Of a DNA stretch of 57,594 nucleotides, positions 13,633 through 57,594 are shown piece by piece. The DNA lies in NCBI GenBank assembly GCA_012522555.1, contig JAAYKG010000060.1:1-57594 (forward strand), written 5' to 3'. A model generated the notes under the pieces. The model did not search any database. It saw only the letters and a program-made list of their open reading frames with translations, and was not told the origin of the DNA. Positions within the stretch are counted from its first letter, which is position 1; every line of letters begins with the position of its first letter. Made by a program: the position numbers and the translations under genes. This DNA is from Armatimonadota bacterium (lineage in GTDB: Bacteria; Armatimonadota; UBA5829).

Positions 13633-14948
13633 TCATCGGCCTCAACCACGAGACCGCACCAGTCGAAATCCGGGAGAAATTGAGCATCACCGACCAGCAG
13701 TTGCCGGATGCGCTGCGTGGACTCGCATCGCTGGACGAGGTTTTGGAGTGCGTCATCCTCTCCACCTGTAACCGCACTGAAATATATGCCTGCACCCCAA
13801 CCAGGGCAAATGACGCCGTGATCGTTGATTGGATGAGCAAATATTTTAGTGTGAGCGCTGAAGATTTTCAGCCGTTTACTTATTCTCGAGCCGGTCACAA
13901 AGCGATAGAGCACCTGTTCAGAGTGGCTTCGGGGATCGATTCGATGGTTCTGGGAGAAGCTCAGATACTTGGGCAAGTGAAGTCGGCCCACGCCGCGGCT
14001 GCCGCTTTGCCATCGGCCCACACCCTCCTTGGAGGACTCTTTCAGAAGGCGATTTCGGTGGGCAAGAGAGTCCGCACAGAAACCGAGATAGGTCGAGGCG
14101 CGTTTTCGGTAGGCTCGGTAGCGGTCAGGATTGCACGATCGATCTTCGATGATCTCAAGGGGCGAAGCGTGTTGATTATCGGCGCGGGCAAAATGGGTGA
14201 GCTGACTGCGACCCATCTTACTTCATCCGGCGCCGATTCCGTGCTTGTGGCAAACCGCACCCAGCAGAAAGCAATCGACCTGGCCGCAAGGTTCGACGGG
14301 CGCGCAGTGGCGTTTGAGGACAGGCAATCGGCTATGTTGTCGGTGGATATAGTCATTACATCAACAGGCGCAGGGGAGCCGATAGTCAACAAAGACATGG
14401 TGGCGTCGGTGATGCGGGCGCGGCGCGGCAGGCCGCTGTTCTTTATAGATATCGCAGTGCCGAGGGATGTCGAAGCGCAGGTCGGCAGCCTGGATGGGGT
14501 GTTTGTCTACAATATAGACGACCTGCGGTGCGCTGTCGAAGAGCAGGCGGAGGGGCGACGTGAGGAGGTGGCGAAGGTGGAGGAGATTATCGGCTCGGAG
14601 GTCGAGGAGTTTTTAGTGAAATTCCGCACCCTGGATGCGATTCCGGTGATAACGGCCCTGCGAGAGAAGTTTGAAGATATCAGGCAGCAGGAGCTTGATA
14701 GGCTGCAAAGCAAGCTCAAACATCTTTCCCGAGAGGATTTGGAGCTTATCGGCGTCTCGACCCGCTCTATAGTAAATAGAATCTGCCACACGCCTATGAT
14801 ACAGATTAAGGACTACGCCATACAGGACGATTCCTCCGACAAGCTGGATATGATCTGCGACTTGTTCGGGATATGTCGTATCGAACAAACCGACGAAAAT
14901 CAGCCTCAGACAGCTCAGGCGAATGATCTTGGGGGCAAGCGGCCATAA
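13620..14948 (+). CDS. hemA: glutamyl-tRNA reductase
   Basis: GTG start. VVIGLNHETAPVEIREKLS, catalytic STCNRTEIY and GAGKMGE NADPH motifs. Confidence 0.95.
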   Translation: MHLVVIGLNHETAPVEIREKLSITDQQLPDALRGLASLDEVLECVILSTCNRTEIYACTPTRANDAVIVDWMSKYFSVSAEDFQPFTYSRAGHKAIEHLFRVASGIDSMVLGEAQILGQVKSAHAAAAALPSAHTLLGGLFQKAISVGKRVRTETEIGRGAFSVGSVAVRIARSIFDDLKGRSVLIIGAGKMGELTATHLTSSGADSVLVANRTQQKAIDLAARFDGRAVAFEDRQSAMLSVDIVITSTGAGEPIVNKDMVASVMRARRGRPLFFIDIAVPRDVEAQVGSLDGVFVYNIDDLRCAVEEQAEGRREEVAKVEEIIGSEVEEFLVKFRTLDAIPVITALREKFEDIRQQELDRLQSKLKHLSREDLELIGVSTRSIVNRICHTPMIQIKDYAIQDDSSDKLDMICDLFGICRIEQTDENQPQTAQANDLGGKRP

Positions 14949-24984: not shown

Positions 24985-26133
24985 ATGGGTAGTGAACGGG
25001 CGCACCAACGGGGAACGACTTGGGCCATAATTGCGATCGGCTCACTTGCTGTAATCCTACTGATAGAGCGATTGAAATGGCTGATTGTAATGATCACAGC
25101 CACTGCGGCTCCGTTCTTTGTAGCATTTCTGCTGGCATTCATGTTGAATCCGCTGATGGCCCGACTGGAGAAGAGGGGCTTGTCGAGGGTATGCTCGGTG
25201 GTTGTAACGAGTCTGCTGTTTCTGGCTGTCTTTGCCGTCGGAGTATTCCTGGTGCTGCCGCAATTCGTAACTCAAGGCGCAGATTTCGTGAGCAGCATTC
25301 CAGCATATGCGCGGGCCTTGGAGAAAGGAATTGATAATTTTCTGGTCGGTCAAAAGGCCTTGTTACAGAGAGTTAGCTTACCAACCTCGATTGCTGAATT
25401 AATCAAGCGATTCCCCGACGAGATGCGACAGTTTTCCACCGCAGCTTTGAATGTAATGAGTCATTTCGTGCTAGCTGTAGTGAGTAAAGTGACTTGGCTG
25501 GTGGTTGTGCCTCTTGTTACGGTATGGCTTCTTATCAACTGGAATGCTCAAAGAGAGGCGATTTACAGACAAATCTCTGATGTTCATCGAGAACGATTCG
25601 TTCGTGTAACACAGTGTATTGCGGGGGTATTAAACTCATACGTGAGGGGAACAATTGTGGTAGCTGTGTTATATGGCGTGGTCACAACCGTGATCTTAGG
25701 TTTAATATTTCGTATGCCATATGCACTGATACTGGGACTGATCGCCGGCCTGGTGTCACCGATACCGTATGTCGGCTCGATTATTATATTACTGTCGACA
25801 GGGATCGTAGCCTATGCCACAAATCCTTCGCTCGGGTACGTTGTGGCAGTTATTTCGGCTATGGTAGTTCAGAACAATATCCTGTTCGATAATTTAGTGG
25901 CGCCAAGAGTATTAGGCGGAGCGGTTGGACTCAATCTCCCGTGGAGTCTTTTTGCCCTTATGTTGGGTGGGAGCATGTTCGGCATAGCGGGAATGCTCAT
26001 TGCAGTGCCAGTCGGCGCCACAATTCGGGTAATCATACTCGAATTGATGCCAAAAGCGCCAAAAGCTCAGTCGGATAATAAGCACCCAGAAAGACAAGGA
26101 GGGACCGAGGAGACTATCTCCCACACAACATAA
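24985..26133 (+). CDS. AI-2E family transporter (PerM/UPF0118)
   Basis: Polytopic protein with the typical central loop and a C-terminal PYVGSIIILL ... GGSMFGIAGMLIAVP region. Start at ATG 24985 behind GGGAGG. Confidence 0.88.
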   Translation: MGSERAHQRGTTWAIIAIGSLAVILLIERLKWLIVMITATAAPFFVAFLLAFMLNPLMARLEKRGLSRVCSVVVTSLLFLAVFAVGVFLVLPQFVTQGADFVSSIPAYARALEKGIDNFLVGQKALLQRVSLPTSIAELIKRFPDEMRQFSTAALNVMSHFVLAVVSKVTWLVVVPLVTVWLLINWNAQREAIYRQISDVHRERFVRVTQCIAGVLNSYVRGTIVVAVLYGVVTTVILGLIFRMPYALILGLIAGLVSPIPYVGSIIILLSTGIVAYATNPSLGYVVAVISAMVVQNNILFDNLVAPRVLGGAVGLNLPWSLFALMLGGSMFGIAGMLIAVPVGATIRVIILELMPKAPKAQSDNKHPERQGGTEETISHTT

Positions 26134-26986
26134 TCAACAGTCGCTCGAGATCATCATCAGAGTAATATTCCATCACGATCCGGCCACGGTCTTTAGTCTG
26201 AATAATTGAGACCTTCGTGCCAAATAGCCTCCGCAGTTGCGCCTCAGCTTCCAACAGGTTCGGGTCTTGTTCATCCAAAAATGTTTCACGTGAAACATTC
26301 TCCGTTCCCCTGCTAGCCTCGCCACGATTCCACTCCCGCGCCAGTCTCTCGGCCTCTCTCACTGATAACCCTGCCCCTGTAATCCTCTTGCACAGTTCGA
26401 TTCGTTCAGGCTCACCATCTATTGAAAGTATGGCCCTAGCATGCCCTTCTCCAATTCTTCCTCTTTTGAGCTCAGATTTCACGGGCTCCGGTAAACTTAG
26501 CAGCCTCATGGTGTTAGCAATAGCCGAGCGACTCTTTCCAACCGCAAATGCCAGGCTCTCTTGCGACAGGCCAAACTCTTCTGATAGACGTTTATACGCT
26601 AAGGCGGCATCAATCGCATTAATATCCTCTCGTTGAATGTTTTCAACCAATGCGACTTCAAGGCTTTGCTCGTTAGTCAGTTCCCGAACAACCGACGGTA
26701 TACGCGCTAACCCAGCAGCCTTCGCCGCTCTCAGTCGTCTCTCACCGGCCACCAGTTCGTAGTCGCCATCTCCTTTTGATCGGATGACTATTGGCTGAAG
26801 GATACCATGAACCCGCACTGAGTTTACCAGCTCTTGGAACTTCTCATCACTATATTCGTTGCGCGGTTGGTATGGATTAACGCTAACCTTGGAGATATCA
26901 ACTTCAGAAATCGTCCCTGGCTGCACTTCCTTATCCGCCATCGGGATCAATGCCCCTAATCCTCTACCGAGACCTTTCTTTTCCAA
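26114..26986 (-). CDS. parB: chromosome partitioning protein ParB/Spo0J
   Basis: [13 protein letters not shown]-terminal motif, ParB box ([15 protein letters not shown]) and an HTH. TTG 26986 lies 9 nt after GGAGG; TTG 27007 is an alternative start. Confidence 0.92.
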
Positions 26987-27749
26987 AAGTGGCCACCTCC
27001 GCAGCAAATATCATATAGGCTTCAGCGCCTTTAGATTTCGGATCATAGGAAATTATAGGCTGCCCATGACTAGGAGCCTCACTCAATCAGACATTTCTGG
27101 GGACAAGCACAGGGGACACCCTGGCCCCAAAAAATCGCCTCACCTCATCGACCACCTGCTGAGAAAGATTGGTCCGATAATCGAACATAGTCAGCAACAC
27201 TTTTGCGACCTCAAGGCTGGGGTTCAGGTGCTGGTTCACTAATTCCACAGTCTTTAAAAGCTGGCTGATCCCCTCCAACGCATAATACTCACACTGTATT
27301 GGCAATATCACATACTCAGCCGCGGTAAGCACGTTTACAGTCAACAAGCCCAAAGGTGGCGGACAATCAATCAGAATGAACTCATATCGACCGCTCACTC
27401 TCTCCAGGGCCTGTTTCAGCTTCGTCTCCCGCGACATGGTGGACATCAATTCTATGTCAGCCCCGGCCAGGTCCAGTTTTGCAGGCGCGAGATCTAGCCC
27501 TTGAGTGTCGGTAGAAATTATCACCTGTTCTATGGGAACTTCGTTGATGAGCACGTCATACATGCACATCTTCAACTCCGACTTGATAACCCCCACACCA
27601 CTGGACGCATTCCCCTGCGGATCAATATCGACAAGTAATGTTCTTTCATCCTGGGCTGCCAAGCACGCCGCCACATTGACGGCAGTGGTCGTCTTTCCGA
27701 CACCACCCTTTTGATTTACAACAGCAAAAATCGATGCCATTCCTATCAC
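26964..27749 (-). pseudogene. parA: ParA/Soj partition ATPase interrupted by an in-frame TGA (27087-27089)
   Basis: Deviant Walker A (NQKGGVGKTTT). The ORF stops after ...VLVPRNV, but the same frame continues [40 protein letters not shown], which is the normal ParA C-terminus. The TGA replaces the conserved Arg of PRNVRLSEAPS. Confidence 0.85.
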
Positions 27750-27843
27750 CCACCGATCAGTAGTTCTTATACGGTGGACACTCCTTCGCGTTCTGCGATC
27801 TCGAACATGAGTTTAGATAATCTCATATAATGTAGACGCATGT

Positions 27844-28149
27844 CTATCTTATTTTGTCCGCAGCGCGCCTCCGGAGCATCATATCTGCAATTTCAGCACC
27901 GCTAACATTGTAGTCTCCCTTGGCAATTCGGTCCTTGATTTCCATAACGACCTCGTCCCTTGTTTCCGGCACATCTCTTAGCGCTGCCTCAGCCACAACC
28001 ATGCCCTGTTCCAACGGAGATAGCGACTGCGTGCTGTTGGTTGTTTGGCTCGATACTAGCCCCTTGGGTCGATTCTTCGGGAGAATCTTCTCTTGTGCTG
28101 CTCCCTGATTTACACAGGCCTTATTGGATTCGACGCCCGATATCTTCAT
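27844..28149 (-). CDS. flgM: anti-sigma-28 factor FlgM
   Basis: 101 aa with a disordered N-terminal half. The C-terminus EIKDRIAKGDYNVSGAEIADMML matches the FlgM family. GAGGAGG SD present. Confidence 0.8.
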   Translation of the reverse strand: MKISGVESNKACVNQGAAQEKILPKNRPKGLVSSQTTNSTQSLSPLEQGMVVAEAALRDVPETRDEVVMEIKDRIAKGDYNVSGAEIADMMLRRRAADKIR

Positions 28150-28242
28150 CTTACTAGTCCTCCTCGGCTTTCACACAGCCTCGGTGTCATCTGCCCCATC
28201 ATATTACGCCCCAAACGCCAAAAAGGCAAACCCCGAAGCTTG

Positions 28243-28330
28243 AGAACGGCAGCCCGGCCGACATACACGTCTTCGTGTTTAGCCCCGTGGCTTTGCGTCC
28301 CCTTCTTTCGAAGAGTTTGCCTTTATCATT
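28243..28330 (-). promoter_or_regulatory. c-di-GMP-I (GEMM-I) riboswitch aptamer in the flgM leader
   Basis: The minus strand reads AAAGGCAAACUCUUC-GAAA-GAAGGGGACGCAAAGCCACGGGGCUAAACACG-AAGA-CGUGUAUGUCGGCCGGGCUGCCG. It has a GCAAAC segment, a GAAA-capped hairpin, the near-invariant GGGACGCAAAGCC junction, a second hairpin and a GC-rich 3' strand. A paralogue lies at 44262. Confidence 0.8.
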
Positions 28331-28350
28331 TGATTAATCTCTATTCTTTG

Positions 28351-28378
28351 TTATCGGAACCTCATGGCGTAGTCTTTA
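28351..28378 (-). promoter_or_regulatory. sigma-28 (FliA)-type promoter for flgM
   Basis: The minus strand reads TAAA-N16-TCCGATAA (consensus TAAA-N15-GCCGATAA), placed just upstream of the riboswitch aptamer. Confidence 0.5.
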
Positions 28379-28479
28379 GGGCTATGCGCATTATTATCTA
28401 AATATTTTTGCAGATAACGCTCGACCCAATAGCTCTATCATCTTGTGCAGATTGTGGAATAACCATAGCGTCCGAAGCA

Positions 28480-28508
28480 TTGACTTGTCACCATTCTCGA
28501 GCTATTCT
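28480..28508 (+). promoter_or_regulatory. candidate sigma-70 promoter for the C25 peptidase gene (TTGACT-N17-TATTCT)
   Basis: TTGACT at 28480-28485 and TATTCT at 28503-28508, about 55 nt upstream of TTG 28565. Confidence 0.3.
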
Positions 28509-28564
28509 GAGGTTATGGCCATTTTGCGACTCGTCATACCGCCTCGCAGCACAGGAGGCCCTAG

Positions 28565-31500
28565 TTGCGCAAGTTGTTTTTGATTATTTTCTCCGTTTTG
28601 CTGGCTACCAGCGCGTCCGCATCGGGTTATTTTGCCGTGCCAACTCCGTCATTCGAGCCGGAATTCAAAACCATGGAGAGCGGGCTCTATATTTTGGCAC
28701 CTGGCTATAGCAATTATTCCTCTCCTGGTGATCCATCACTGCCGTTTCAAGATATAAGGGTTATCGTGCCTCCTGATGCCCTCCCGTCTTCAATCACAGT
28801 CGCTCTTACAGACAACAAACTCGACACAATAACCGTTGAAAAGCAGATCGTGCCTACACCTCCAATCAAGCTCGCTCTCGACGACTCCCCTGTCTTGGAT
28901 TGGGGCACAAACAAACAAATTGATTCTGGTCGAAACACACTCGTATACTTAGCCGACGAGCTATTTCCGGCCTCTCACGTCCAGCTCATCAGCGTAAATA
29001 ACCTTCGTAAATGGAAGATCGCCACCGTGCGCTACTTCCCCTTGCGATACAATCCGATCACATCCACTCTTGAACGAACTACCGGTGGGCAGATATCGCT
29101 TTCCTACAGCACAGTTATTCATACAAATGACCTTTCACCGGAGCGCCTTGCTGATGATATGTTCGCGGACAAAGTTCAATGCCTTACAGCCAACTACTCC
29201 GACGCCAAGTCGTGGTACACTTCGCCAAAATCTATTCGCAGTACCACACTTATGCAATCCAGCTCCGATCCGTGTTACATGATCATTACCACATCCGCCG
29301 TAACCTCTGCCAGCAACCAACTGCAAGCCTTTGCCTCCCACAAAGCAAATCGGGGTTTTACGGTAGAAATAGCGACCGAGGATGACTGGGGCGGCGGCAT
29401 CGGGGATGATGCCGCCAACAACATTCGCTCGTATTTAGCCGATAATTATATATCAAAACAGATTCAATACGTGCTGCTTATCGGAAATCCAGACCCTACG
29501 GTCGGCGATGTGCCGATGAAGATGCTTTGGCCTCGCTACTACAGCATCGATCCGTACCGCGAAGCTCCGTCCGATTATTTCTACGCCGATCTAACTGGAA
29601 ATTGGGACCTTGACGGTGACGGCTACTATGGCCAGCAAGAAGGCGATTTCGGCCCTGAGGGTGTGGATGTTTTTCCCGAAGTCATTGTGGGCCGGATTCC
29701 CTACTATGGCGACATTTCCGAAGTCGATTCAATCCTGCAAAAGACTATCAGCTACGAAACGGGTGCATTTAGAGGGGATTGGGTTAGAAATGTCTTGCTT
29801 AGTATGAAGCCATCGGACAGTTATACACCGGGATATCATCTTGGCGAGGCAATAAAAACCGATGCTGTGGCTCCGGCGGATATGCATGCTACTACAGTTT
29901 ATGATAGCGACTACGGCCTCACACCCGCACCGGATTACACTCCCTGCAGCTTCGAAAATGTTATTTCCGCCTGGCAGCAGCACGCCGGTTTCCATTTCTG
30001 GTGGACCCACGGCAACGAGACCACTGCAGCCGACGTCATCAGCACAGACCGGTGCCAAAATCTCGACGACATCCACCCATCATTCATCTTTCAATGCTCG
30101 TGTCTCAACGGCTACCCCGAAAGAGACGACAATTTAGGCTTTGCTTTGCTGAAGTGTGGGGCTATTGCGACCAATTCCGCCAGCCGCGTTTCCTGGTACT
30201 ATCCCGGTCAGACCAACTTCGCCAATTCGGACTCCAATTCCGGCCTCGCCTATACATACGCGACCAAGCTGATCCGAGATCACTTGCCGTGCGGAGACGC
30301 GCATTATGCAACGCTCGCCGAGGTTCCAAATGTTATTTGGATGAATCACTGCGTCTTCAATCTCTACGGAGACCCGTCGGTGCAGTACCCTTCCGCCCCG
30401 ACAATATCCCATTCTCCGTTGGGCAATACCGATGTTACAACGCAGCCATACGCCATACGGGCTACCATCGCAAGTACTACACCCATAGCTCCTGCCAGCC
30501 CGAAACTCTATTGGAAAACATCCGCGTCAAATGCGTTCACAGAGCAAACTCTGCAGTCTTTAGGGGGAGGCGCATATGCCGGCTCGATCCCCGCACAAGG
30601 TCTGAATACGATCGTTTCCTATTATCTCGAAGCCACCGACAGCGTCGGTGAAACAACGCTTCTTCCCGCCGATGCTCCGACCAACGTGATATCCTTCGAG
30701 ATCAGAGCCGACGTAGAGCCTCCGGTGATAACACACACTCCCCTGGCCGATACGCCAAACAAGTTCGGCCCTTATCCGGTCGAGGCGTCTATCACCGATG
30801 ATCTTGGGATCCTGTCCGCCTCCGTACACTACAAAATCAATGATGGGCCTTGGCGGCATCTTGAGATGGAGCGCACATCCGGCGATATTTTTTCTGCTCT
30901 TATGCTCGGCCCGACAGCGTCCGGGGATACGGTTAGCTATTATCTCACTGCAACCGATATTTCGCTGGAATCTAGAACCACGCGGCTTCCGGATGTCGGC
31001 GCCTATTCGTTTAACATCGGCAAAAAGATTTACGTCGGAGTCTTCAACTCTAGTGAAACACCGTACTATTTCAGCGGCGGCAACTCGAACGCCTGGGGGC
31101 CAGTTTCCAATATTCTTAATACAGACCCGGCCCGTAGATTTCAAGTCAGCGTGATCACGGATCTCGATGGAGATAACGGATCGATCGGGATAACTGGGCA
31201 GGATGTGCTGTTTCTACCAGACAACGCCGTTCCATACACTTGCATGCAGACGGTATCGGATTGGTTCGAGCCTGGGAAAACAATTGTCGCGATGGACAGT
31301 GCGGCTTCCTATGCCGCATACACCGGGTGGATGTGGCCTGGAGCAGTCGGCACCAATGGTTATGCGATCATACCTGGCCTAGGTTATTGGACCAACGACG
31401 CAGACGCGAACGACCAGCAGATTTGGGCGGCCGATAGTATAACCAAGGATTACACTATTGGACAAGTAATAGGTTCGGCAGCGGGGGACGCCGTTTTTTA

Positions 31501-32623
31501 CACAAATAAGTTGCCCACGGATGCTCACGCGCTTTCCGGCAGCGCAACCAAACCAAACATATGTCATGCCGCATATCGAGATGTCCCTGGCAAGGGCCGC
31601 ATTGTCGTCCTCGGGCCGTATATCCAACCCATCGAAAGCCAGTATTCGATCATTCGCGAATCCGCCGTCCCTCCCACGTCCCCACGCGGCCTCCAGCTAA
31701 TCTCCCCTAACGGTGGAGAATCATTCGCTGCCGGCGCACAGGTCAAAATCAGATTCACCGCTACAGGAGGTTGGATAGAGTCCGATAGGATCAAAATAGA
31801 GTATTGTACGGGCCTTGACGCGGTCTGGAGACAGGTTGCGGGCGCACAGTCTCTCGACTACGACTCGGAAAGTTTCACGTGGAACACTGCGAACCTTCCG
31901 GGAAGTCACGGCTACCTCGTGCGCATAAGCACGCTTGATGAAGCGCTTTCGGATCAGTCCGATATGCCGTTTTCCATTGTTCCCAATATAGACATATCCT
32001 CCGCCAAATCTGTCCCAGACGGGGATCTGATCAGATTACCAGGCAAGGTGGTAATTTGCGGTATAGATGGATTCACATATATCGAGGAGCCGGATCGGCG
32101 TGCCGGTATTCGGATAATTGGAGCCACAGGGTTATCCATTTCGACTCTGGTCAATATAACGGGCTGCTTAGACACAATCGACAGGGAGCGCGTTGTTGAT
32201 GCCGATTCTGTGGAGGTGCTCGGGCCGGGGGCTCAAGTGCGACCTTATGTGATGAGTTACCGGGCCATTGGTGGAACAGATTTCGGTTTGCAATCAGCAG
32301 TGATGGAATACAGGTTACACCAGTCCAGCCAAGCCGTGCCGACTATAGGACTAAACAATATAGGGCTTTTAGTCCGGGCGTCCGGCAGGGTAGTCGCAAG
32401 TGGTGTGGATTGGTTCTACATTGACGACGGTTCGAGGTGTAACGACGGCTCCGGCATGATCGGGGTCAAGGTTCTATGCCCGAACTCGAATCCGCCGGCT
32501 CAAGGTGAATTTGTGGTGATCAACGCGGTCAGCAGCGCATATTTTGAGCGCAACGGACTGTGGCGCGCTTTGGTGCTGCCAGGCTCGCATCACTTGATGA
32601 CGCTCGACAAATCTCAAGAGTAG
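28565..32623 (+). CDS. large secreted gingipain-like cysteine peptidase (peptidase C25 family) with Ig/Fn3-like repeats and C-terminal beta modules
   Basis: TTG start and Sec signal (LFLIIFSVLLATSASASG). C25-like core: YMIITTS..., YVLLIGNPDP, DYFYADLTGNWDLDGDGYYG, VIVGRIPYY. Candidate catalytic His (WWTHGNE) and Cys (FIFQCSCLNG). 1352 aa. Confidence 0.8.
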   Translation: MRKLFLIIFSVLLATSASASGYFAVPTPSFEPEFKTMESGLYILAPGYSNYSSPGDPSLPFQDIRVIVPPDALPSSITVALTDNKLDTITVEKQIVPTPPIKLALDDSPVLDWGTNKQIDSGRNTLVYLADELFPASHVQLISVNNLRKWKIATVRYFPLRYNPITSTLERTTGGQISLSYSTVIHTNDLSPERLADDMFADKVQCLTANYSDAKSWYTSPKSIRSTTLMQSSSDPCYMIITTSAVTSASNQLQAFASHKANRGFTVEIATEDDWGGGIGDDAANNIRSYLADNYISKQIQYVLLIGNPDPTVGDVPMKMLWPRYYSIDPYREAPSDYFYADLTGNWDLDGDGYYGQQEGDFGPEGVDVFPEVIVGRIPYYGDISEVDSILQKTISYETGAFRGDWVRNVLLSMKPSDSYTPGYHLGEAIKTDAVAPADMHATTVYDSDYGLTPAPDYTPCSFENVISAWQQHAGFHFWWTHGNETTAADVISTDRCQNLDDIHPSFIFQCSCLNGYPERDDNLGFALLKCGAIATNSASRVSWYYPGQTNFANSDSNSGLAYTYATKLIRDHLPCGDAHYATLAEVPNVIWMNHCVFNLYGDPSVQYPSAPTISHSPLGNTDVTTQPYAIRATIASTTPIAPASPKLYWKTSASNAFTEQTLQSLGGGAYAGSIPAQGLNTIVSYYLEATDSVGETTLLPADAPTNVISFEIRADVEPPVITHTPLADTPNKFGPYPVEASITDDLGILSASVHYKINDGPWRHLEMERTSGDIFSALMLGPTASGDTVSYYLTATDISLESRTTRLPDVGAYSFNIGKKIYVGVFNSSETPYYFSGGNSNAWGPVSNILNTDPARRFQVSVITDLDGDNGSIGITGQDVLFLPDNAVPYTCMQTVSDWFEPGKTIVAMDSAASYAAYTGWMWPGAVGTNGYAIIPGLGYWTNDADANDQQIWAADSITKDYTIGQVIGSAAGDAVFYTNKLPTDAHALSGSATKPNICHAAYRDVPGKGRIVVLGPYIQPIESQYSIIRESAVPPTSPRGLQLISPNGGESFAAGAQVKIRFTATGGWIESDRIKIEYCTGLDAVWRQVAGAQSLDYDSESFTWNTANLPGSHGYLVRISTLDEALSDQSDMPFSIVPNIDISSAKSVPDGDLIRLPGKVVICGIDGFTYIEEPDRRAGIRIIGATGLSISTLVNITGCLDTIDRERVVDADSVEVLGPGAQVRPYVMSYRAIGGTDFGLQSAVMEYRLHQSSQAVPTIGLNNIGLLVRASGRVVASGVDWFYIDDGSRCNDGSGMIGVKVLCPNSNPPAQGEFVVINAVSSAYFERNGLWRALVLPGSHHLMTLDKSQE

Positions 32624-44171: not shown

Positions 44172-44261
44172 CTTGCATCCCCCTATTCATCGACCAATTT
44201 CCCGTATTCCTCACAGGCTGGCCCGCCGCCCGGTGTGGCATAAGCTATATGAAGATCAACC

Positions 44262-44352
44262 GACAATCGCAAACCCTGGGAAACCAGGGGACGCAAAGCT
44301 ATAGGGGCTAAATTCCGACGATACGTCGGGACAAGTCTGCCAGGCTGCCGAA
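44262..44352 (+). promoter_or_regulatory. c-di-GMP-I (GEMM-I) riboswitch aptamer upstream of the HD-GYP/GAF/GGDEF operon
   Basis: CGCAAACCCUGG-GAAA-CCAGGGGACGCAAAGCUAUAGGGGCUAAAUUCCGACG-AUA-CGUCGGGACAAGUCUGCCAGGCUGCCG. It shares the core GGGGACGCAAAGC..GGGGCUAAA...GGCUGCCG with the flgM-leader copy. Confidence 0.8.
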
Positions 44353-44589: not shown

Positions 44590-46443
44590 ATGAGAAATGG
44601 GCGCAAAATCTTGTTTTGCTTTATAACGGGGCTGGCGGCGTCGATGTTGGGGCTGATGTTTTGGAGCCGTTGTCCTGTGGCTGGGTGGAGCTTTCTCATC
44701 GCTGCGCCGTGGCTGATGTTTGCGTGGATACTTTTTTTACATCGAGATACCTCGTCCGAATGTGTGGTAAGGCTTGCGGCGGCTGATAGTCTGTCGGAGG
44801 CGTATCGCCGCGCCACAGTAGCCCTTGCGTCGGCTATTGGCGCCAAAGATTCCTACATTCATCCCTGTGTGAACCGTGTGCCGCGAATATGTGAGCTTAT
44901 CGCCGATCACATCGATCTGGACCATGATGCTGTGGAGAAGCTCAAGCTCGCCGCACTGATAAGAGATGTCGGCAAATTGGGAGTGCCGGATCATATTTTG
45001 CTTAAGCCAGGCCCGCTGGACGCCGAAGAGTTCGCCAAGATGCGCAACCATGCCGCTATCGGCGCCGATTTGCTGCGCCAGGCCGATTTGCCGGATGATG
45101 TCGTGGATATGGTGCTTTACCATCACGAAAAGTACGACGGCACCGGTTACCCTGAGCGGCTGGCGGCGAATGATATCCCTTTGGGGTCGCGGATAATCTC
45201 AGTTGCGGTGGTGTATGATGCATTGATATCCGACAGGTGCTATCGAAGTGGCTGGACGCATTCCGACGCGATTTCCCATATACAGGAGCTTTCCGGCGCA
45301 GCATTCGACCCGGCGGTCGTCGATGCGTTTTTTGCCGTTGAGTCGCAGATTTTGGAATTGGGGGCGGAGCTTGCACGCGATATGAAGTCGCAAGTGAACG
45401 GGAGTGCCGAGGTCAGTTGCGCCGCGGTGGACACAATCGCCCAGGCCAATCGGGAACTGATATCACTATTTGAGATCACCCAGACTCTATCCAGCACCCT
45501 GGAGATCGATGAGGTGCTGGCGTTGTTGGCCAACAGGACACGCAGGCTCGTGCAAGGTTCGACGTGTGTGGTATTGATGGTTGACAAAACACATTCTAAA
45601 TCTCTCATCGCCAAAACGGCGGTCGGCCGGTTTGAAGAGATGTTTGTCGGAGCACGGGCAAGATACGGCAAGGGAATCACCGGCCGCGCCGCTCAAAAGG
45701 CCCAACCACGGGCCGGGCACTACGACCCTGATGATCTTGTATTTAACTATAGCGAAACTCCTCCCGAGCTGGATTTCAAATCTTGCCTGGCCGTGCCGAT
45801 AGTAAGCTACGGAGACGTGCTCGGCACAATTAATCTATATGATGTCTGCCGAAGATCGTTTACCGAAGATGAGATGCGAGTGCTGACGTTTATTGCCCAT
45901 CAGGCAGCCCTGGCTGTACATAACGCGCGGGCCTTTGAAGAGGCTCGAGATTTCGCCTTGCGCGATCCGCTGACTAATCTGCGCAACGGTCGATTCCTGC
46001 GGCATTATCTGGACAGGGAGCTGAATCGCAGCTTCAGGTTCGATGAGCCTCTGTCGGTGTTGGGTATCGATTTGGACAATTTCAAGGGTGTAAATGATTT
46101 GAAAGGGCACGAAGCCGGAGACAGGGTGCTTAAGGATGTGGCGGATATATTCAGACGTGAGCTTCGGGATTATGATGTAATCGTGCGTAACGGCGGGGAC
46201 GAATTTGTAGCGGTGCTTCCTGAGACCGGTTATTCGGAGGCGAAGCGCACTGCACAGAGGATTCAATCGGCGATTGAGAACTATGCTCGCACGAAGGTCA
46301 ACGATGTGCCTCGCTTTGGGGTGAGCGTGGGGGTTGCGTCGTATCCGGCTGATGGAACTGATGCGAGCGCCCTGCTAGCCTCCGCGGATGCGGCTATGTA
46401 TGCCGACAAACGATCTCGGAATCTACTTCGCAAGGCTGCTTAG
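44590..46443 (+). CDS. membrane-anchored HD-GYP phosphodiesterase / GAF / GGDEF diguanylate cyclase multidomain protein
   Basis: Two N-terminal TM helices. HD-GYP domain (IRDVGKLGVPD...YHHEKYDGTGYPERL), a GAF-like region, and a GGDEF domain with intact RNGGDEF plus an RDYD I-site 5 residues upstream. Confidence 0.9.
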   Translation: MRNGRKILFCFITGLAASMLGLMFWSRCPVAGWSFLIAAPWLMFAWILFLHRDTSSECVVRLAAADSLSEAYRRATVALASAIGAKDSYIHPCVNRVPRICELIADHIDLDHDAVEKLKLAALIRDVGKLGVPDHILLKPGPLDAEEFAKMRNHAAIGADLLRQADLPDDVVDMVLYHHEKYDGTGYPERLAANDIPLGSRIISVAVVYDALISDRCYRSGWTHSDAISHIQELSGAAFDPAVVDAFFAVESQILELGAELARDMKSQVNGSAEVSCAAVDTIAQANRELISLFEITQTLSSTLEIDEVLALLANRTRRLVQGSTCVVLMVDKTHSKSLIAKTAVGRFEEMFVGARARYGKGITGRAAQKAQPRAGHYDPDDLVFNYSETPPELDFKSCLAVPIVSYGDVLGTINLYDVCRRSFTEDEMRVLTFIAHQAALAVHNARAFEEARDFALRDPLTNLRNGRFLRHYLDRELNRSFRFDEPLSVLGIDLDNFKGVNDLKGHEAGDRVLKDVADIFRRELRDYDVIVRNGGDEFVAVLPETGYSEAKRTAQRIQSAIENYARTKVNDVPRFGVSVGVASYPADGTDASALLASADAAMYADKRSRNLLRKAA

Positions 46444-46646: not shown

Positions 46647-47360
46647 ATGGCTCGAATATTTATGTTTGCATCATGGGCGGCGGCAGCCTCGCTGGCCGGG
46701 ATTGCCGTCGTTAGCACGGATATCAAATGGCGTGTGGCTGCCGTGATTCTAGCTGGTTTGGTTGTTTTGCCGAGCCTGTTGATCGCATTCCGGTCTATAG
46801 CTGCCCGCGAACCATCGCAAGAAACTCAGCCGATACGGCAAACCGAAGCGTCATCAAATGAACAGCAGACCGGGGTATATATGGACCCGTTGACCGGGTT
46901 AGCTACCAGGCATTATTTGACGATGTTTCTGAATCGAGAGATCAGCCGATGCAAGAGATCCGGCGCGGAATTAAGCCTGGCGATATTTGACTTTCCGGAT
47001 TTGTCGAAGGTCGAGGAGCAATCGGCCCTTACGGCTATGGCTGATGTCGGTGCGAAGATGAAATCTATGCTTCGAGACTACGATCTGGTGGCGTTATTCT
47101 CATTAGGCCGCCTCGCTATCGTGCTGCCGGAGACGAACGTGTCGAAGTCGCTGGAGATTGTCGAAAGGCTGCATCAACTGGCGACCGGCGTCTGTGCGGA
47201 CGACAAGCCGCTCACCGCCACAGCCGGCCTGGCATCATTCCCCACTCATGGCGACACCTCGGAATGGCTGATCACCTCCGCCCACCGAGCGCTGAACCAG
47301 TGCAGAGCGGGTTCATCAAAAGACGTCCACGTGCTTGAGAACTATCAACTCGCGGGCTGA
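46647..47360 (+). CDS. membrane-anchored degenerate GGDEF-domain protein (GGDEF replaced by SLGRL; RxxD I-site retained)
   Basis: Two TM helices, then DPLTGLATRHYL...LRDYDLVALFSLGRLAIVLPETN...AGLASFP. The fold is conserved, the active-site residues are lost, and RDYD is kept. Confidence 0.8.
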   Translation: MARIFMFASWAAAASLAGIAVVSTDIKWRVAAVILAGLVVLPSLLIAFRSIAAREPSQETQPIRQTEASSNEQQTGVYMDPLTGLATRHYLTMFLNREISRCKRSGAELSLAIFDFPDLSKVEEQSALTAMADVGAKMKSMLRDYDLVALFSLGRLAIVLPETNVSKSLEIVERLHQLATGVCADDKPLTATAGLASFPTHGDTSEWLITSAHRALNQCRAGSSKDVHVLENYQLAG

Positions 47361-51946: not shown

Positions 51947-52809
51947 TCAGATACGGACAGCGGCCGTAGTCGAATTTGTGACGGCGGGCAAACCTATTAT
52001 TTGCCTTGCTTTCTGCGGCGATGCTATTGATCGGCCACAAGCTCGGGCTACCCCTACCAGTCGATCGATTAGATCTGCATTCGTTGCTAATCTGCTGCGC
52101 TGTTCGTCAAACCAAAGATTGTCCTCAAGGCCAACTCGAACGTGGCCGCCCATGGTGATCGCGAGAGTGTTGACACTGAACTGATATCGACCTATCCCTG
52201 CTGCAGCCCACGTGACCCCATCGGGTAAGGCTCGAACCATTGTCGCCAGATTGAAAGCCGTCGCGCTTATTGTGCCTAAAGATCCCAACAGCAAGTTGCA
52301 ATAAAATGGAGGTCTGAGGATCTCGTGGCTTGTAAGATAATGCGAATACTCGACCATTCCCAGATCGAAACACTCCCATTCCGGGGTGATTTTTCTTTTG
52401 GCCATCTTCAGCGCAAGCGCCTTAATCATATCGGGCTGTTGACTGATTCGTTTCGAGCAAAATTCATGGAGCCAAGGGTAAGCGAAGCCATTTCCGGAGC
52501 GGGATCAACCAACTCAAGCACCTCCGAGCGCTGTTCAAAAGTCTTGAACACCCGGCCGCTAGTCGACACACAAAGAATAATGTCGGGGCAGACCTTTCGG
52601 ACACCATTCAGAATCTGAGAATAAATATCCTTGCGGTATGTGGGTAAGTCGTCGCTATCTCGGGCGTGAAGGTGCACAATAGAGGCTCCGGCGTCCCGGC
52701 ATCGCCTCACATCGGCGATGATTTCTTCCGGCGAGACAGGGACGTGTGGAGTGTCTTTCTTAGTAGGAACCATACCGGTAATCGCGGCATTTATAATAAG
52801 ATCATCCAT
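51947..52809 (-). pseudogene. 3-keto-5-aminohexanoate cleavage enzyme family (BKACE/DUF849) gene split by a 1-nt frameshift
   Basis: ORF 52426-52809 (IINAAITGMVP...HLHARD...LTLGSMNF...NSPI*) and ORF 51947-52429 (MIKALALKM...PEWECFD...GGHVRVGLEDN) together make one BKACE TIM barrel. Adding one C to the CCC run (plus-strand GGG 52433-52435) restores NSPDMIKAL. Confidence 0.85.
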
Positions 52810-55748: not shown

Positions 55749-57594
55749 ATGACATCACATAAGCACTTCAAGAGAGCGGCGGGTCTGATGCTGGTGGCGG
55801 TTCTCGCGAGCCGGCTGTTGGGGTTGGTTCGCGAGATGCTGATAGCCCGGCAGTTTGGATCCACAGGGGTTGTCAGCGCATATTATGCCGCGTTTAACCT
55901 TCCGGATCTGCTCTACTTCTTTTTGTCCAGCGGTGCGCTGTCGAGCGCGTTTATTCCTGAGTTCACAAAACGCTTCGAGACCGGCAAAAAGCGTGAGGCA
56001 TGGGAAGTTTCCAGTATCATCGCTTGCTTTATGGGCCTGGTGCTGCTCGCGGCGGTCGTCATTTTCTGGGTTTATGCCAAGCCGTTGGTCAGCATCCTCG
56101 CGGTGCCGGGATTTGTTACCAGATATCCCGAACTGGTTCCGCTCACCGTGCTGCTGACTCGCATCATCTTGCCCTGCCAGTTGTTTTTCTTCCTGGGTGG
56201 GCTGATGAGCGCGACATTGGAATCGCGTCAGAAGTTCGCCGCACGAGCGGCTGGGCCTGTTATCTATAACCTCGGCATCATTTTCGGCGCAGTAGCGCTA
56301 GCCAAATGGTTCAACATCGCCGGGCTTGCATTTGGAACCCTGGTCGGAGCTTTTGTCGGCAATGTGGTTTACACGTTTTATTGTATGCGCAAGGAGGGAT
56401 ATTCGTTTTATCCCAGCCTGAACCTGCGCCACCCTGGGGTTGTGCGAGTGGCCAAGCTCGCCCTGCCGGTAATATTCGGCCTGGGGCTGCCGCAGATCGA
56501 CGTTATAGTCAACAGATGGTTCGCGAGTTTCGTGTCGGCAAGCGCTCCGGCAGACCTCAACTTCGCCAACCGCCTCATGCAGGTCCCACTCGGCAGTTTC
56601 GCTCAGGCAGCCGGGACTGCCATTCTGCCGATGCTGTCGGCTTATGCAGCAAAAAACGCGCTCAGCGATATGCGCAGCGGGGTCAGTTACGGTCTCCGCG
56701 GAATTATGGTGGAAAGCCTGCCCGCGACAGCTTTTATGGTGGTGATGGCTGATCCTTTGGTGCGGGCGATATATATGGGGGGAGAATTCAAACCCTCCAG
56801 CGTAGCGCCGGTCGCGTTATTGTTGATATGGTATTCCGTAGGGATCTTCGCCTGGGCGGGCCAAAGAATAGTGGCTCCTGGGTTCTTCGCTTTGCAGGAT
56901 ACACTTACCCCCGTAGTCATCGGCACCGTATCGACCGTCATATTTATCCCGCTCAATGTGATCCTTATGAAGTCTATGGGCGCGCCGGGTATCGCGCTGG
57001 CGACCACGATAGGCATCACCCTGCACTTCGTCGGCATGAGTTGGGTGTTGCGAAAGAGACTACGCGGACTTGACGGAGCCAAAATGATCCGAACAATCGG
57101 ATTATCTTTGGTTGCGGCTGCGCTGATGGGCGCTGCGTGTTTCGGAGTGAGGATAGGGATGTCCCAGGCTCTTGGCGCGTGGCAGCTTCAGGATGGGGAT
57201 ATTTCAAACCCGACCGCACTCGCTGAAAAATTGGAGCGCGATAACCACCCTCTGTCGGGTTTCATATATTCGGAGGTCAGGGACAAAACACGCAAGCTGA
57301 TAGACGACGATCAACAGGCCGCTCAACTGGCTCCGGATATCAGAGTCCTGCTGGTCGGCGAGCTGAATCGGATATTGCAGGATGATTCACTCTATCAAAG
57401 CGACAGATTTGCCAGAATTCTGCTGCCGTCGGATGTCAAGCAATCCGTCCGACAGCGCCCCTCCCAAGAGCAGCTCACCGATTTGAATAGACGGTTAATC
57501 GAGTCCGCCTATCTCGATACAATAAGCCGCCGCCAAGGCAAAACAATGTCGGATCGCGTGCAGGCCTGGCTGCGGCGAATGCTCGAAGATCCGC
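55749..57594 (+). CDS. murJ: lipid II flippase MurJ (MviN) with a C-terminal soluble extension; 3' end lies outside the window
   Basis: Not in the ORF track because the frame stays open to the window end. LASRLLGLVREMLIARQFGSTGVVSAYYAAFNLPDLLYFFLSSGALSSAFIP is the canonical MurJ N-terminus. After about 480 aa of TM region a hydrophilic tail continues to 57594. Confidence 0.9.
   Translation, partial: MTSHKHFKRAAGLMLVAVLASRLLGLVREMLIARQFGSTGVVSAYYAAFNLPDLLYFFLSSGALSSAFIPEFTKRFETGKKREAWEVSSIIACFMGLVLLAAVVIFWVYAKPLVSILAVPGFVTRYPELVPLTVLLTRIILPCQLFFFLGGLMSATLESRQKFAARAAGPVIYNLGIIFGAVALAKWFNIAGLAFGTLVGAFVGNVVYTFYCMRKEGYSFYPSLNLRHPGVVRVAKLALPVIFGLGLPQIDVIVNRWFASFVSASAPADLNFANRLMQVPLGSFAQAAGTAILPMLSAYAAKNALSDMRSGVSYGLRGIMVESLPATAFMVVMADPLVRAIYMGGEFKPSSVAPVALLLIWYSVGIFAWAGQRIVAPGFFALQDTLTPVVIGTVSTVIFIPLNVILMKSMGAPGIALATTIGITLHFVGMSWVLRKRLRGLDGAKMIRTIGLSLVAAALMGAACFGVRIGMSQALGAWQLQDGDISNPTALAEKLERDNHPLSGFIYSEVRDKTRKLIDDDQQAAQLAPDIRVLLVGELNRILQDDSLYQSDRFARILLPSDVKQSVRQRPSQEQLTDLNRRLIESAYLDTISRRQGKTMSDRVQAWLRRMLEDP

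Follow-up and report, generated by a model that had tools for sequence, protein, structure and literature searches.

A conserved c-di-GMP-I riboswitch aptamer in the flgM leader of Armatimonadota, predicted to gate synthesis of an anti-sigma-28 factor

How does the signal that separates motile from sessile life reach the checkpoint that governs late flagellar genes? The question is raised by the leader of flgM, a gene for a homologue of the anti-sigma-28 factor, in a 57,594-nucleotide stretch of DNA from an Armatimonadota bacterium (GenBank assembly GCA_012522555.1, contig JAAYKG010000060.1), referred to as the window. Cyclic di-GMP (c-di-GMP) is a universal motile/sessile signal, and the FlgM/sigma-28 pair is a universal checkpoint for late flagellar genes. 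To our knowledge, direct links from one to the other are few. Among those known are FleQ-type regulators, YcgR at the motor, the Clostridioides difficile flgB riboswitch and the non-flagellar RsiG/WhiG pair. A reading of the window from its letters alone (the sequence-only reading) had proposed a c-di-GMP-I riboswitch behind a sigma-28-type promoter in the flgM leader. Our analysis finds a canonical aptamer of this class at the locus and in most of its homologues, in the 5′ leader of a transcript predicted to depend on sigma-28. The element rather probably acts as a transcriptional ON switch. The motile-to-sessile signal would then probably act directly on the flagellar checkpoint in Armatimonadota.

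The aptamer is recognized over its full length by the RF01051 covariance model, with a score of 88.2 bits (E = 3.7e-16) against a gathering score of 35. The alignment spans model positions 1–87 of 87 and contains no flagged non-canonical pair. The aptamer helix P2 is formed by CUCUUC-GAAA-GAAGGG and capped by a GAAA tetraloop, and GGACGCAAAGCC is also present. The P3 hairpin holds the tetraloop receptor CUAA/UAUG. The junction reads GACGCAAAG, the GACGCAAAGCC junction motif is also seen, and the 3′ side consists of the strand GCUGCCG with the tail GCCGUU. Three ligand-contacting residues, G20, A47 and C92 in the numbering of the Vibrio cholerae Vc2 riboswitch, are canonical in the window, where they lie in AAAG-GC, GACGC-A-AAG and UG-C-CG, respectively. 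The window aptamer thus shares with Vc2 and the RF01051 family the GAAA tetraloop of helix P2, the P3 receptor, the GGCAAAC and GACGCAAAGCC junctions and these three residues. It differs from Vc2 in its target, flgM, in its host, an Armatimonadota bacterium, and in the predicted use of the 5′-most aptamer strand as the 5′ strand of a terminator.

Homologous leaders support the assignment. An alignment of 41 distinct flgM leaders from the main clade (alignment A2) has 97.6% paired cells in the aptamer structure and ten pairs changed on both sides, which none of 500 shuffles reaches, and the columns of G20, A47 and C92 are invariant in it. By sequence and covariation, the window element is confirmed as a canonical c-di-GMP-I riboswitch aptamer, and binding of c-di-GMP is predicted. 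The sequence-only reading had named this class and offered the RF01051 gathering threshold as a check; the observed score is 2.5 times that threshold, and the tetraloop, junction and P3 elements are all in place.

Two related identities were considered and rejected. The cyclic GMP-AMP (c-GAMP) sensing variant, GEMM-Ib, requires A at position 20, where the window has the G that is invariant in A2. The c-di-GMP-I-GGC family (RF03167) is defined by G47 (GACGCGAAG), which is absent, and the match in the window is to RF01051. RF03167 is the best-scoring family for 16 homologous loci, and Rfam clan competition places this label on L012, L014, L035, L036, L040, L044, L045, L047, L049, L051, L053, L055, L058 and L064. 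The inspected alignments of L040, L053 and L058 all read GACGCAAAG at the junction. Because these three carry the canonical A47 and the A column is invariant in A2, the RF03167 label on the flgM-leader aptamers is, as judged from the sequences, a scoring artefact, and automatic annotation of such loci would mislead.

The gene downstream of the aptamer lies on the same strand, with its ATG at 28149, 95 nt past the aptamer end. Its product scores 43.4 bits against Pfam PF04316 over residues 42–92 (cutoff 25). When a profile built from 29 homologues was compared with the PDB, FlgM chains took the first two places (E = 0.003 and 0.013); one of them is 1rp3_B, the Aquifex FlgM in complex with sigma-28. 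Fifty-four FlgM homologues were found, which NCBI and JGI annotate as FlgM of metagenome-assembled genomes (MAGs) of Armatimonadetes/Armatimonadota. A protein identical to that of the window occurs in many metagenome assemblies, and the source is an uncultured Armatimonadota lineage. These matches support membership in the FlgM family, with sigma-28 inhibition and export as predicted functions. Both the flgM call of the sequence-only reading and its spacing from the aptamer thus stand.

Upstream of the aptamer, at a distance of 20 nt, lies a sigma-28 (FliA/SigD)-type promoter, P1. It agrees with TAAA-N16-GCCGATAA at 11 of 12 positions, with a single mismatch. This motif is matched three times in the window at no more than one mismatch, where 0.27 matches are expected. 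The two other sites (14587..14614 and 56353..56380) are antisense within coding genes, a hemA-like and a murJ-like gene, and were set aside as chance matches, so that P1 is the only intergenic site of this quality in the window. In most of 55 homologous leaders, the best match to TAAA-N14-17-GCCGATAA agrees at 10 or more of 12 positions. Main-clade leaders nearly always have a 16-nt spacer, and their −10 element stops 28–37 nt short of GGCAAA; in deep clades this distance is 68–92 nt. The motif therefore forms a clear phylogenetic footprint, which supports a FliA/SigD-type promoter and suggests dependence on FliA. Since the −10 element sits at a fixed distance before GGCAAA, transcription is expected to start upstream of the aptamer, at approximately 28344..28342, about 8 nt after TCCGATAA and about 12 nt before the aptamer. 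The promoter that the earlier reading had placed here is thus borne out as a motif that lies one mismatch from the pattern and whose position is conserved in the main clade.

The arrangement is not a peculiarity of one genome. Homologous loci were collected by an alignment of FlgM (A1), with 21 loci from species-representative genomes and 38 from metagenomes. Of 58 loci scanned with Rfam, 54 (19/20, 19/20 and 16/18 in the separate scans) have flgM preceded on its own strand by a GEMM-I aptamer, a recurrence far beyond chance. The four loci without it comprise two contigs that end too near the gene (L038 and L063) and two distant partial matches (L065 and L027, the latter from Ignavibacteriales). 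Capsulimonadaceae, at an FlgM identity of only about 36%, are among the aptamer–flgM loci. The leader 28140..28400 is 100% identical in six independent assemblies, which depart from the window at 2–72 positions over 6 kb. Comparison of the loci shows that the riboswitch–flgM layout is conserved at the phylum level. Aptamer, sigma-28 motif and flgM are also retained in deep-branching loci (L024–L026, L059–L062 and L064), which belong to Capsulimonadaceae and other groups. There, the segment CCUGCGUU is an anti-aptamer element complementary to the 3′ strand of helix P2 or to the junction GACGCA, and an anti-Shine-Dalgarno element, GGUUGUUCC, opposes the Shine-Dalgarno (SD) sequence GGAGCA(A/G)CC. 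A constant pairing of aptamer and gene with varying expression platforms is typical of genuine riboswitches.

What would the aptamer control? In the ligand-free minimum-free-energy fold of the window, the 5′ aptamer strand AAAGGCAAACUC (strand P), together with CGAA of the helix P2 loop, pairs with UUCG-GGGGUUUGCCUUU (28237..28222), a downstream segment that contains the anti-aptamer strand H. In addition, GGGGACG, from the 3′ strand of helix P2 and the junction, pairs with CGUUCUC, from the 3′ strand of aptamer helix P1 and the linker; P3 is unchanged. The GG/CC base of the P:H helix adjoins a run of five U residues. After GTTTGCC, a run of mostly 4–7 T is kept across the main clade. The nucleotides captured by H are those of the ligand pocket, namely G20, the G21–C22 pairs and A23–25. 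The aptamer and P:H folds are therefore mutually exclusive, and the ligand should block nucleation by H.

The competing helix is a regular feature of these leaders. Each of the 43 distinct main-clade leaders has it as its minimum-energy fold, and there it is predicted to compete with the aptamer on the flgM strand as a putative terminator. It is favoured over the aptamer with a free downstream strand by 10.5–22.4 kcal/mol (ddG −10.5 to −22.4). The downstream strand alone folds weakly, with 0 to −6.3 kcal/mol across loci, which argues that no alternative strong terminator is available in the bound state. For the 10-nt complement AAAGGCAAAC/GUUUGCCUUU, the probability of a chance occurrence within 100 nt is about 1e-4. 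Pairing in the alternative helices amounts to 97.1%, compared with 40–62% in slid controls. Compensating changes occur in individual lineages: L022 and L054 combine UGAAAGA with UCUUUCA, and L014, L053 and L049 carry others. The variable 5′ and 3′ segments of a locus pair better with each other than with permuted partners in 5000 of 5000 permutations, in which relatedness was uncontrolled. The positions of these elements are listed in the table below.

Table. Positions of the flgM leader elements in the window, in the direction of transcription
Feature	Coordinates	Strand	Remarks
Sigma-28 (FliA/SigD)-type promoter P1, TAAAGACTACGCCATGAGGTTCCGATAA	28351..28378	(−)	Motif with phylogenetic footprint; TAAA 28378..28375, 16-nt spacer, TCCGATAA 28358..28351
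c-di-GMP-I (GEMM-I) aptamer	28245..28331	(−)	RF01051 covariance-model match, full length
Strand P, AAAGGCAAACUC	28313..28324	(−)	5′ aptamer strand, contains G20; alternative partner is strand H
Strand H, UUCGGGGUUUGCC	28225..28237	(−)	Anti-aptamer strand and 3′ strand of the putative terminator; complementary to P and the helix P2 loop CGAA
U tract, UUUUU	28220..28224	(−)	Directly 3′ of strand H
Candidate sigma-70-type promoter P2, TTGCCT-N17-TAATAT	28201..28229	(−)	−35 28229..28224, −10 28206..28201
Element X, GGGGCAGAUGACACCGAGGCU	28177..28197	(−)	Second partner for linker and strand H
Shine-Dalgarno sequence, GAGGAGG	28159..28165	(−)	Read from sequence, 9 nt before ATG
flgM, 101-aa anti-sigma-28 factor homologue	27844..28149	(−)	Pfam FlgM

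Two further elements lie between the aptamer and the gene. A candidate sigma-70-type promoter, P2, sits downstream of the aptamer and overlaps strand H and the U tract. In the window it agrees with the consensus at 8 of 12 positions, and a simple promoter scan made no call. A TAnnAT box follows TTGCCT at a spacing of 17–18 nt in most main-clade leaders, with an information content of 1.39 (T), 1.72 (A), 0.78 (t), 0.22 (n), 1.56 (A) and 2.0 (T) bits in poorly conserved surroundings. Loci L019, L053 and L058 lack the box yet keep the aptamer, H and X. The profile suggests a −10 element and not paired RNA. A pairing of TAnnAT with AAUAU near the 5′ end was considered and rejected, with only four A–U pairs in the window and L009 and no covariation. 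As a probable start between aptamer and gene that would be independent of the riboswitch, promoter P2 makes it likely that FlgM can also be made by a route other than sigma-28 and c-di-GMP.

Element X provides a second partner for strand H. The H:X duplex is calculated at −21.3 kcal/mol in the window and, for most loci, at approximately −17 to −24 kcal/mol. Permuted pairs match the cognate ones in none of 5000 permutations. Locking the aptamer in the folding model increases the predicted pairing of H with X, the mean going from 0.03 to 0.53 and the window value from 0.07 to 0.85. With the stretch immediately 5′ of the SD sequence, X also forms a small hairpin, in which lineages differ in their pairs (GGCU/AGCC, AGCU/AGCU and CCCCG/CGGGG). 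A relay of four strands, from P:H to H:X to X:SD, that would free the ribosome-binding site was examined. The switch to H:X is predicted, but modelled SD accessibility shows no consistent change between the free and locked states, rising in 19 loci and falling in 13 (Wilcoxon p = 0.25), with equal means in separate modelling. Because of this inconsistency, the calculations do not support a translational relay.

The elements combine into the following proposed mechanism. RNA polymerase would start at P1, and the aptamer would fold first. Without c-di-GMP, the free pocket strand AAAGGCAAACUC would be captured by the emerging GGGGUUUGCCUUU, and GGGGACG would re-pair with CGUUCUC. The result would be a long rod with a GC-closed base against the U tract, at which the polymerase would stop before flgM. 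With c-di-GMP, the pocket strand would be held in the aptamer, leaving H without its upstream partner; H would later pair with X, and transcription would read through into flgM. At high c-di-GMP, sigma-28 would thus drive synthesis of its own inhibitor, closing a negative feedback that turns late flagellar genes off. At low c-di-GMP, the feedback transcript would be aborted, while promoter P2 may supply a basal level of FlgM independent of the riboswitch. Such ON logic agrees with the way in which c-di-GMP and motility are usually related. The direction of the switch, the probable second promoter and the conservation at the phylum level go beyond the points that the sequence-only reading addressed.

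In a fuller form, the flgM leader could be a module of three layers. A sigma-28 transcript would be gated by c-di-GMP, with the ligand pocket as toehold and the terminator enclosing the aptamer; a housekeeping promoter would be nested in the terminator; and X, a mimic of the pocket strand, would capture the freed terminator strand. We regard this complete arrangement as a tentative proposal, somewhat short of an even chance. If true, it would let c-di-GMP open and close the sigma-28/FlgM feedback loop across a whole phylum.

Several observations weigh against the preferred ON switch or one of its components. The FlgM product falls slightly short of the cutoff of the stricter NCBIfam equivalog TIGR03824 (38.3 bits, cutoff 40.75). 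No fliA or other flagellar gene was found within the 57.6-kb window; some Armatimonadota MAGs are reported to carry flagellar gene sets (PMC10290634). Covariation in the alternative helices is weak, with changes on both sides in only three pairs and four cells, because both strands are almost invariant. The overlap of H with the −35 element of the putative promoter P2 could alone explain part of its conservation. The fold of the whole leader has a z-score of only −1.66 relative to shuffles. The putative terminator, a GG/CC-closed helix followed by UUUUU, would enclose about 85 nt of structured RNA as its loop, and a simple terminator scan made no call. Finally, the deep clades lack the U tract and have another expression platform, and constrained folding of their leaders showed no switch.

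The main alternatives concern the direction of the switch, the step at which it acts and its weight in flgM expression. Regulation after transcription, an unlikely account of the whole, would have H alternate between P and X. In the bound state, H:X would free the region next to the SD sequence, translation or mRNA stability would be regulated, and the U tract and TAnnAT would serve other roles. The conserved complementarity of H and X and the partner switch on locking the aptamer, both described above, fit this account, as do the lineage-specific pair changes in the hairpin between X and the SD-adjacent region and the explicit anti-SD/SD helix, without a U tract, in the deep clades. The inconsistent SD accessibility speaks against it, and a conserved U run right after a GC-closed helix is most simply read as a terminator. 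Such regulation is also compatible with the ON switch as a second layer and does not exclude it. The polarity could instead be OFF, which we consider distinctly unlikely. Bound c-di-GMP would then lower flgM, for example through termination at the weak hairpin CAAGCU/GGUUUG and the U tract, or through a P:H rod that acts as a processive antiterminator or stabilizer. The case for ON polarity consists entirely of thermodynamic prediction, the local hairpin before the U tract is free in the bound state (−3.3 kcal/mol in the window), and the best-known flagellar GEMM-I riboswitch, Cd1 of C. difficile, is an OFF switch (PMC9262584, PMC5386303). Yet this hairpin is very weak across loci compared with the gain of 10–22 kcal/mol for the ligand-free rod, whose GG/CC end lies at the U tract.

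With an OFF switch, more c-di-GMP would also mean more sigma-28 activity, contrary to how this messenger usually relates to motility. In the remaining account, the riboswitch would be marginal to FlgM synthesis. Most flgM mRNA would come from promoter P2, and the sigma-28 transcript would yield mainly a short terminated RNA that acts as a small RNA or as a sponge for c-di-GMP. TTGCCT-N17-TAnnAT does show the conservation profile typical of a −10 element, and transcripts from P2 would carry no aptamer. However, the match of P2 to the consensus is incomplete in the window and its activity putative, and the three loci without the −10 box preserve the aptamer, H and X. The retention of aptamer and flgM across the phylum, despite changing platforms, favours regulation of flgM in cis. 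We consider a marginal role very improbable.

Comparison with characterized systems places the proposed ON switch among known designs. The closest flagellar counterpart is Cd1, in the leader of the C. difficile flgB operon. It is likewise a GEMM-I aptamer in a flagellar leader that acts by transcription termination and connects c-di-GMP to the output of a sigma-28 factor, SigD (PMC5386303, PMC9262584). Cd1, however, switches OFF, has a terminator of its own and governs the early operon that encodes SigD itself (PMC5386303, PMC9262584), whereas the switch described here is predicted to be ON and to control the anti-sigma factor. If the ON polarity holds, the two would reach the same outcome, less motility, by opposite polarity on opposite partners. 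The pilM GEMM-Ib riboswitch of Geobacter metallireducens provides a precedent for a transcriptional ON switch with mutually exclusive aptamer and terminator folds (PMC9262584). It senses c-GAMP through A20, and its terminator is formed from the 3′ part of the aptamer (T+A+H) and sequesters the Watson–Crick C (PMC9262584). In contrast, the flgM leader has G20, and its predicted terminator would form between H and the 5′ pocket strand P, so that nearly the whole aptamer would become the loop, an atypical layout.

A similar regulatory outcome is achieved by a protein in Streptomyces, where c-di-GMP silences the FliA-family sigma factor WhiG via the anti-sigma factor RsiG (PMC7005675). There, c-di-GMP binds directly to RsiG (PMC7005675), which is not a homologue of FlgM, whereas the flgM leader is predicted to control the synthesis of an anti-sigma factor at the RNA level.

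For flgM itself, the reference is Salmonella, in which the gene is transcribed from a class 2 flgAMN promoter and a class 3, sigma-28-dependent flgMN promoter with autogenous feedback. Salmonella thus combines a sigma-28 promoter with a second, sigma-28-independent one, as is predicted here, and lacks a riboswitch. In the flgM leader of the window, c-di-GMP would also gate the sigma-28 route, and the second promoter is predicted to be nested in the leader terminator. No account of flgM under a c-di-GMP riboswitch turned up in a full-text literature search, whose coverage is incomplete so that absence is no proof; this agrees with the impression of the sequence-only reading that the arrangement had not been characterized. 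The aptamer class is well known; the flgM target is notable and the platform possibly unusual. If the proposal is true, riboswitch gating of sigma-28-driven anti-sigma-28 synthesis would be a new and very compact link, kept across a poorly studied phylum. The platform would also add a design variant, with the pocket strand as the 5′ strand of a terminator and a promoter nested in that terminator.

The neighbourhood of flgM bears on the extent of the regulated unit. A divergent gene for a 1352-aa C25 peptidase lies upstream, and parA and parB lie downstream. The order C25 peptidase (divergent)–flgM–parA–parB–AI-2E transporter, found at 26114..32623 in the window, is kept in more than 50 Armatimonadota loci, including deep clades (L007–L060). 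This synteny raised the idea of riboswitch control of parA–parB. In most relatives (e.g. L010, L014, L017–L021, L037, L045 and L048), a canonical terminator, a GC hairpin with a U run, occupies the flgM–parA spacer; it argues against that idea and indicates that flgM itself is the regulated unit. No such terminator was found in the window spacer (27750..27843) or in the closest relatives, L008 and L009, and read-through into parAB is therefore possible in this sub-lineage. An inverted repeat, TAGAC-ATGC-GTCTA (27833..27846, minus strand), overlaps the flgM stop codon, and kindred forms occur in many loci (ACnnnnGTCTAC right after the stop). The parA gene of the window contains an in-frame TGA at 27087..27089 on the minus strand (PRNV*LSEAPS), where six near-identical metagenome contigs (L001–L006) have AGA for arginine and encode a ParA of 258 aa. 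Two readings of the TGA are possible, a nonsense variant or an error in sequencing the source of the window.

Elsewhere in the window, a second c-di-GMP-I aptamer is located at 44258..44352 on the plus strand (RF01051, 64.8 bits), approximately 238 nt upstream of an HD-GYP/GAF/GGDEF gene (44590..46443) that is followed by a GGDEF gene (46647..47360). This position suggests feedback of c-di-GMP on its own turnover enzymes; simple scans called neither a terminator nor a sigma-70 promoter in its leader. The murJ/mviN-like flippase gene that contains the antisense site at 56353..56380 (minus strand) extends from about 55770 to 57594 on the plus strand, as read from the sequence, and runs past the window end, for which reason it is absent from the list of open reading frames. 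On the minus strand, two adjacent open reading frames, 51947..52429 and 52426..52809, share a beta-keto acid cleavage enzyme (PF05853) between them; they overlap by 4 nt and cover profile positions 2–118 and 127–274. A frameshift is the likely cause, meaning either a pseudogene or an assembly error.

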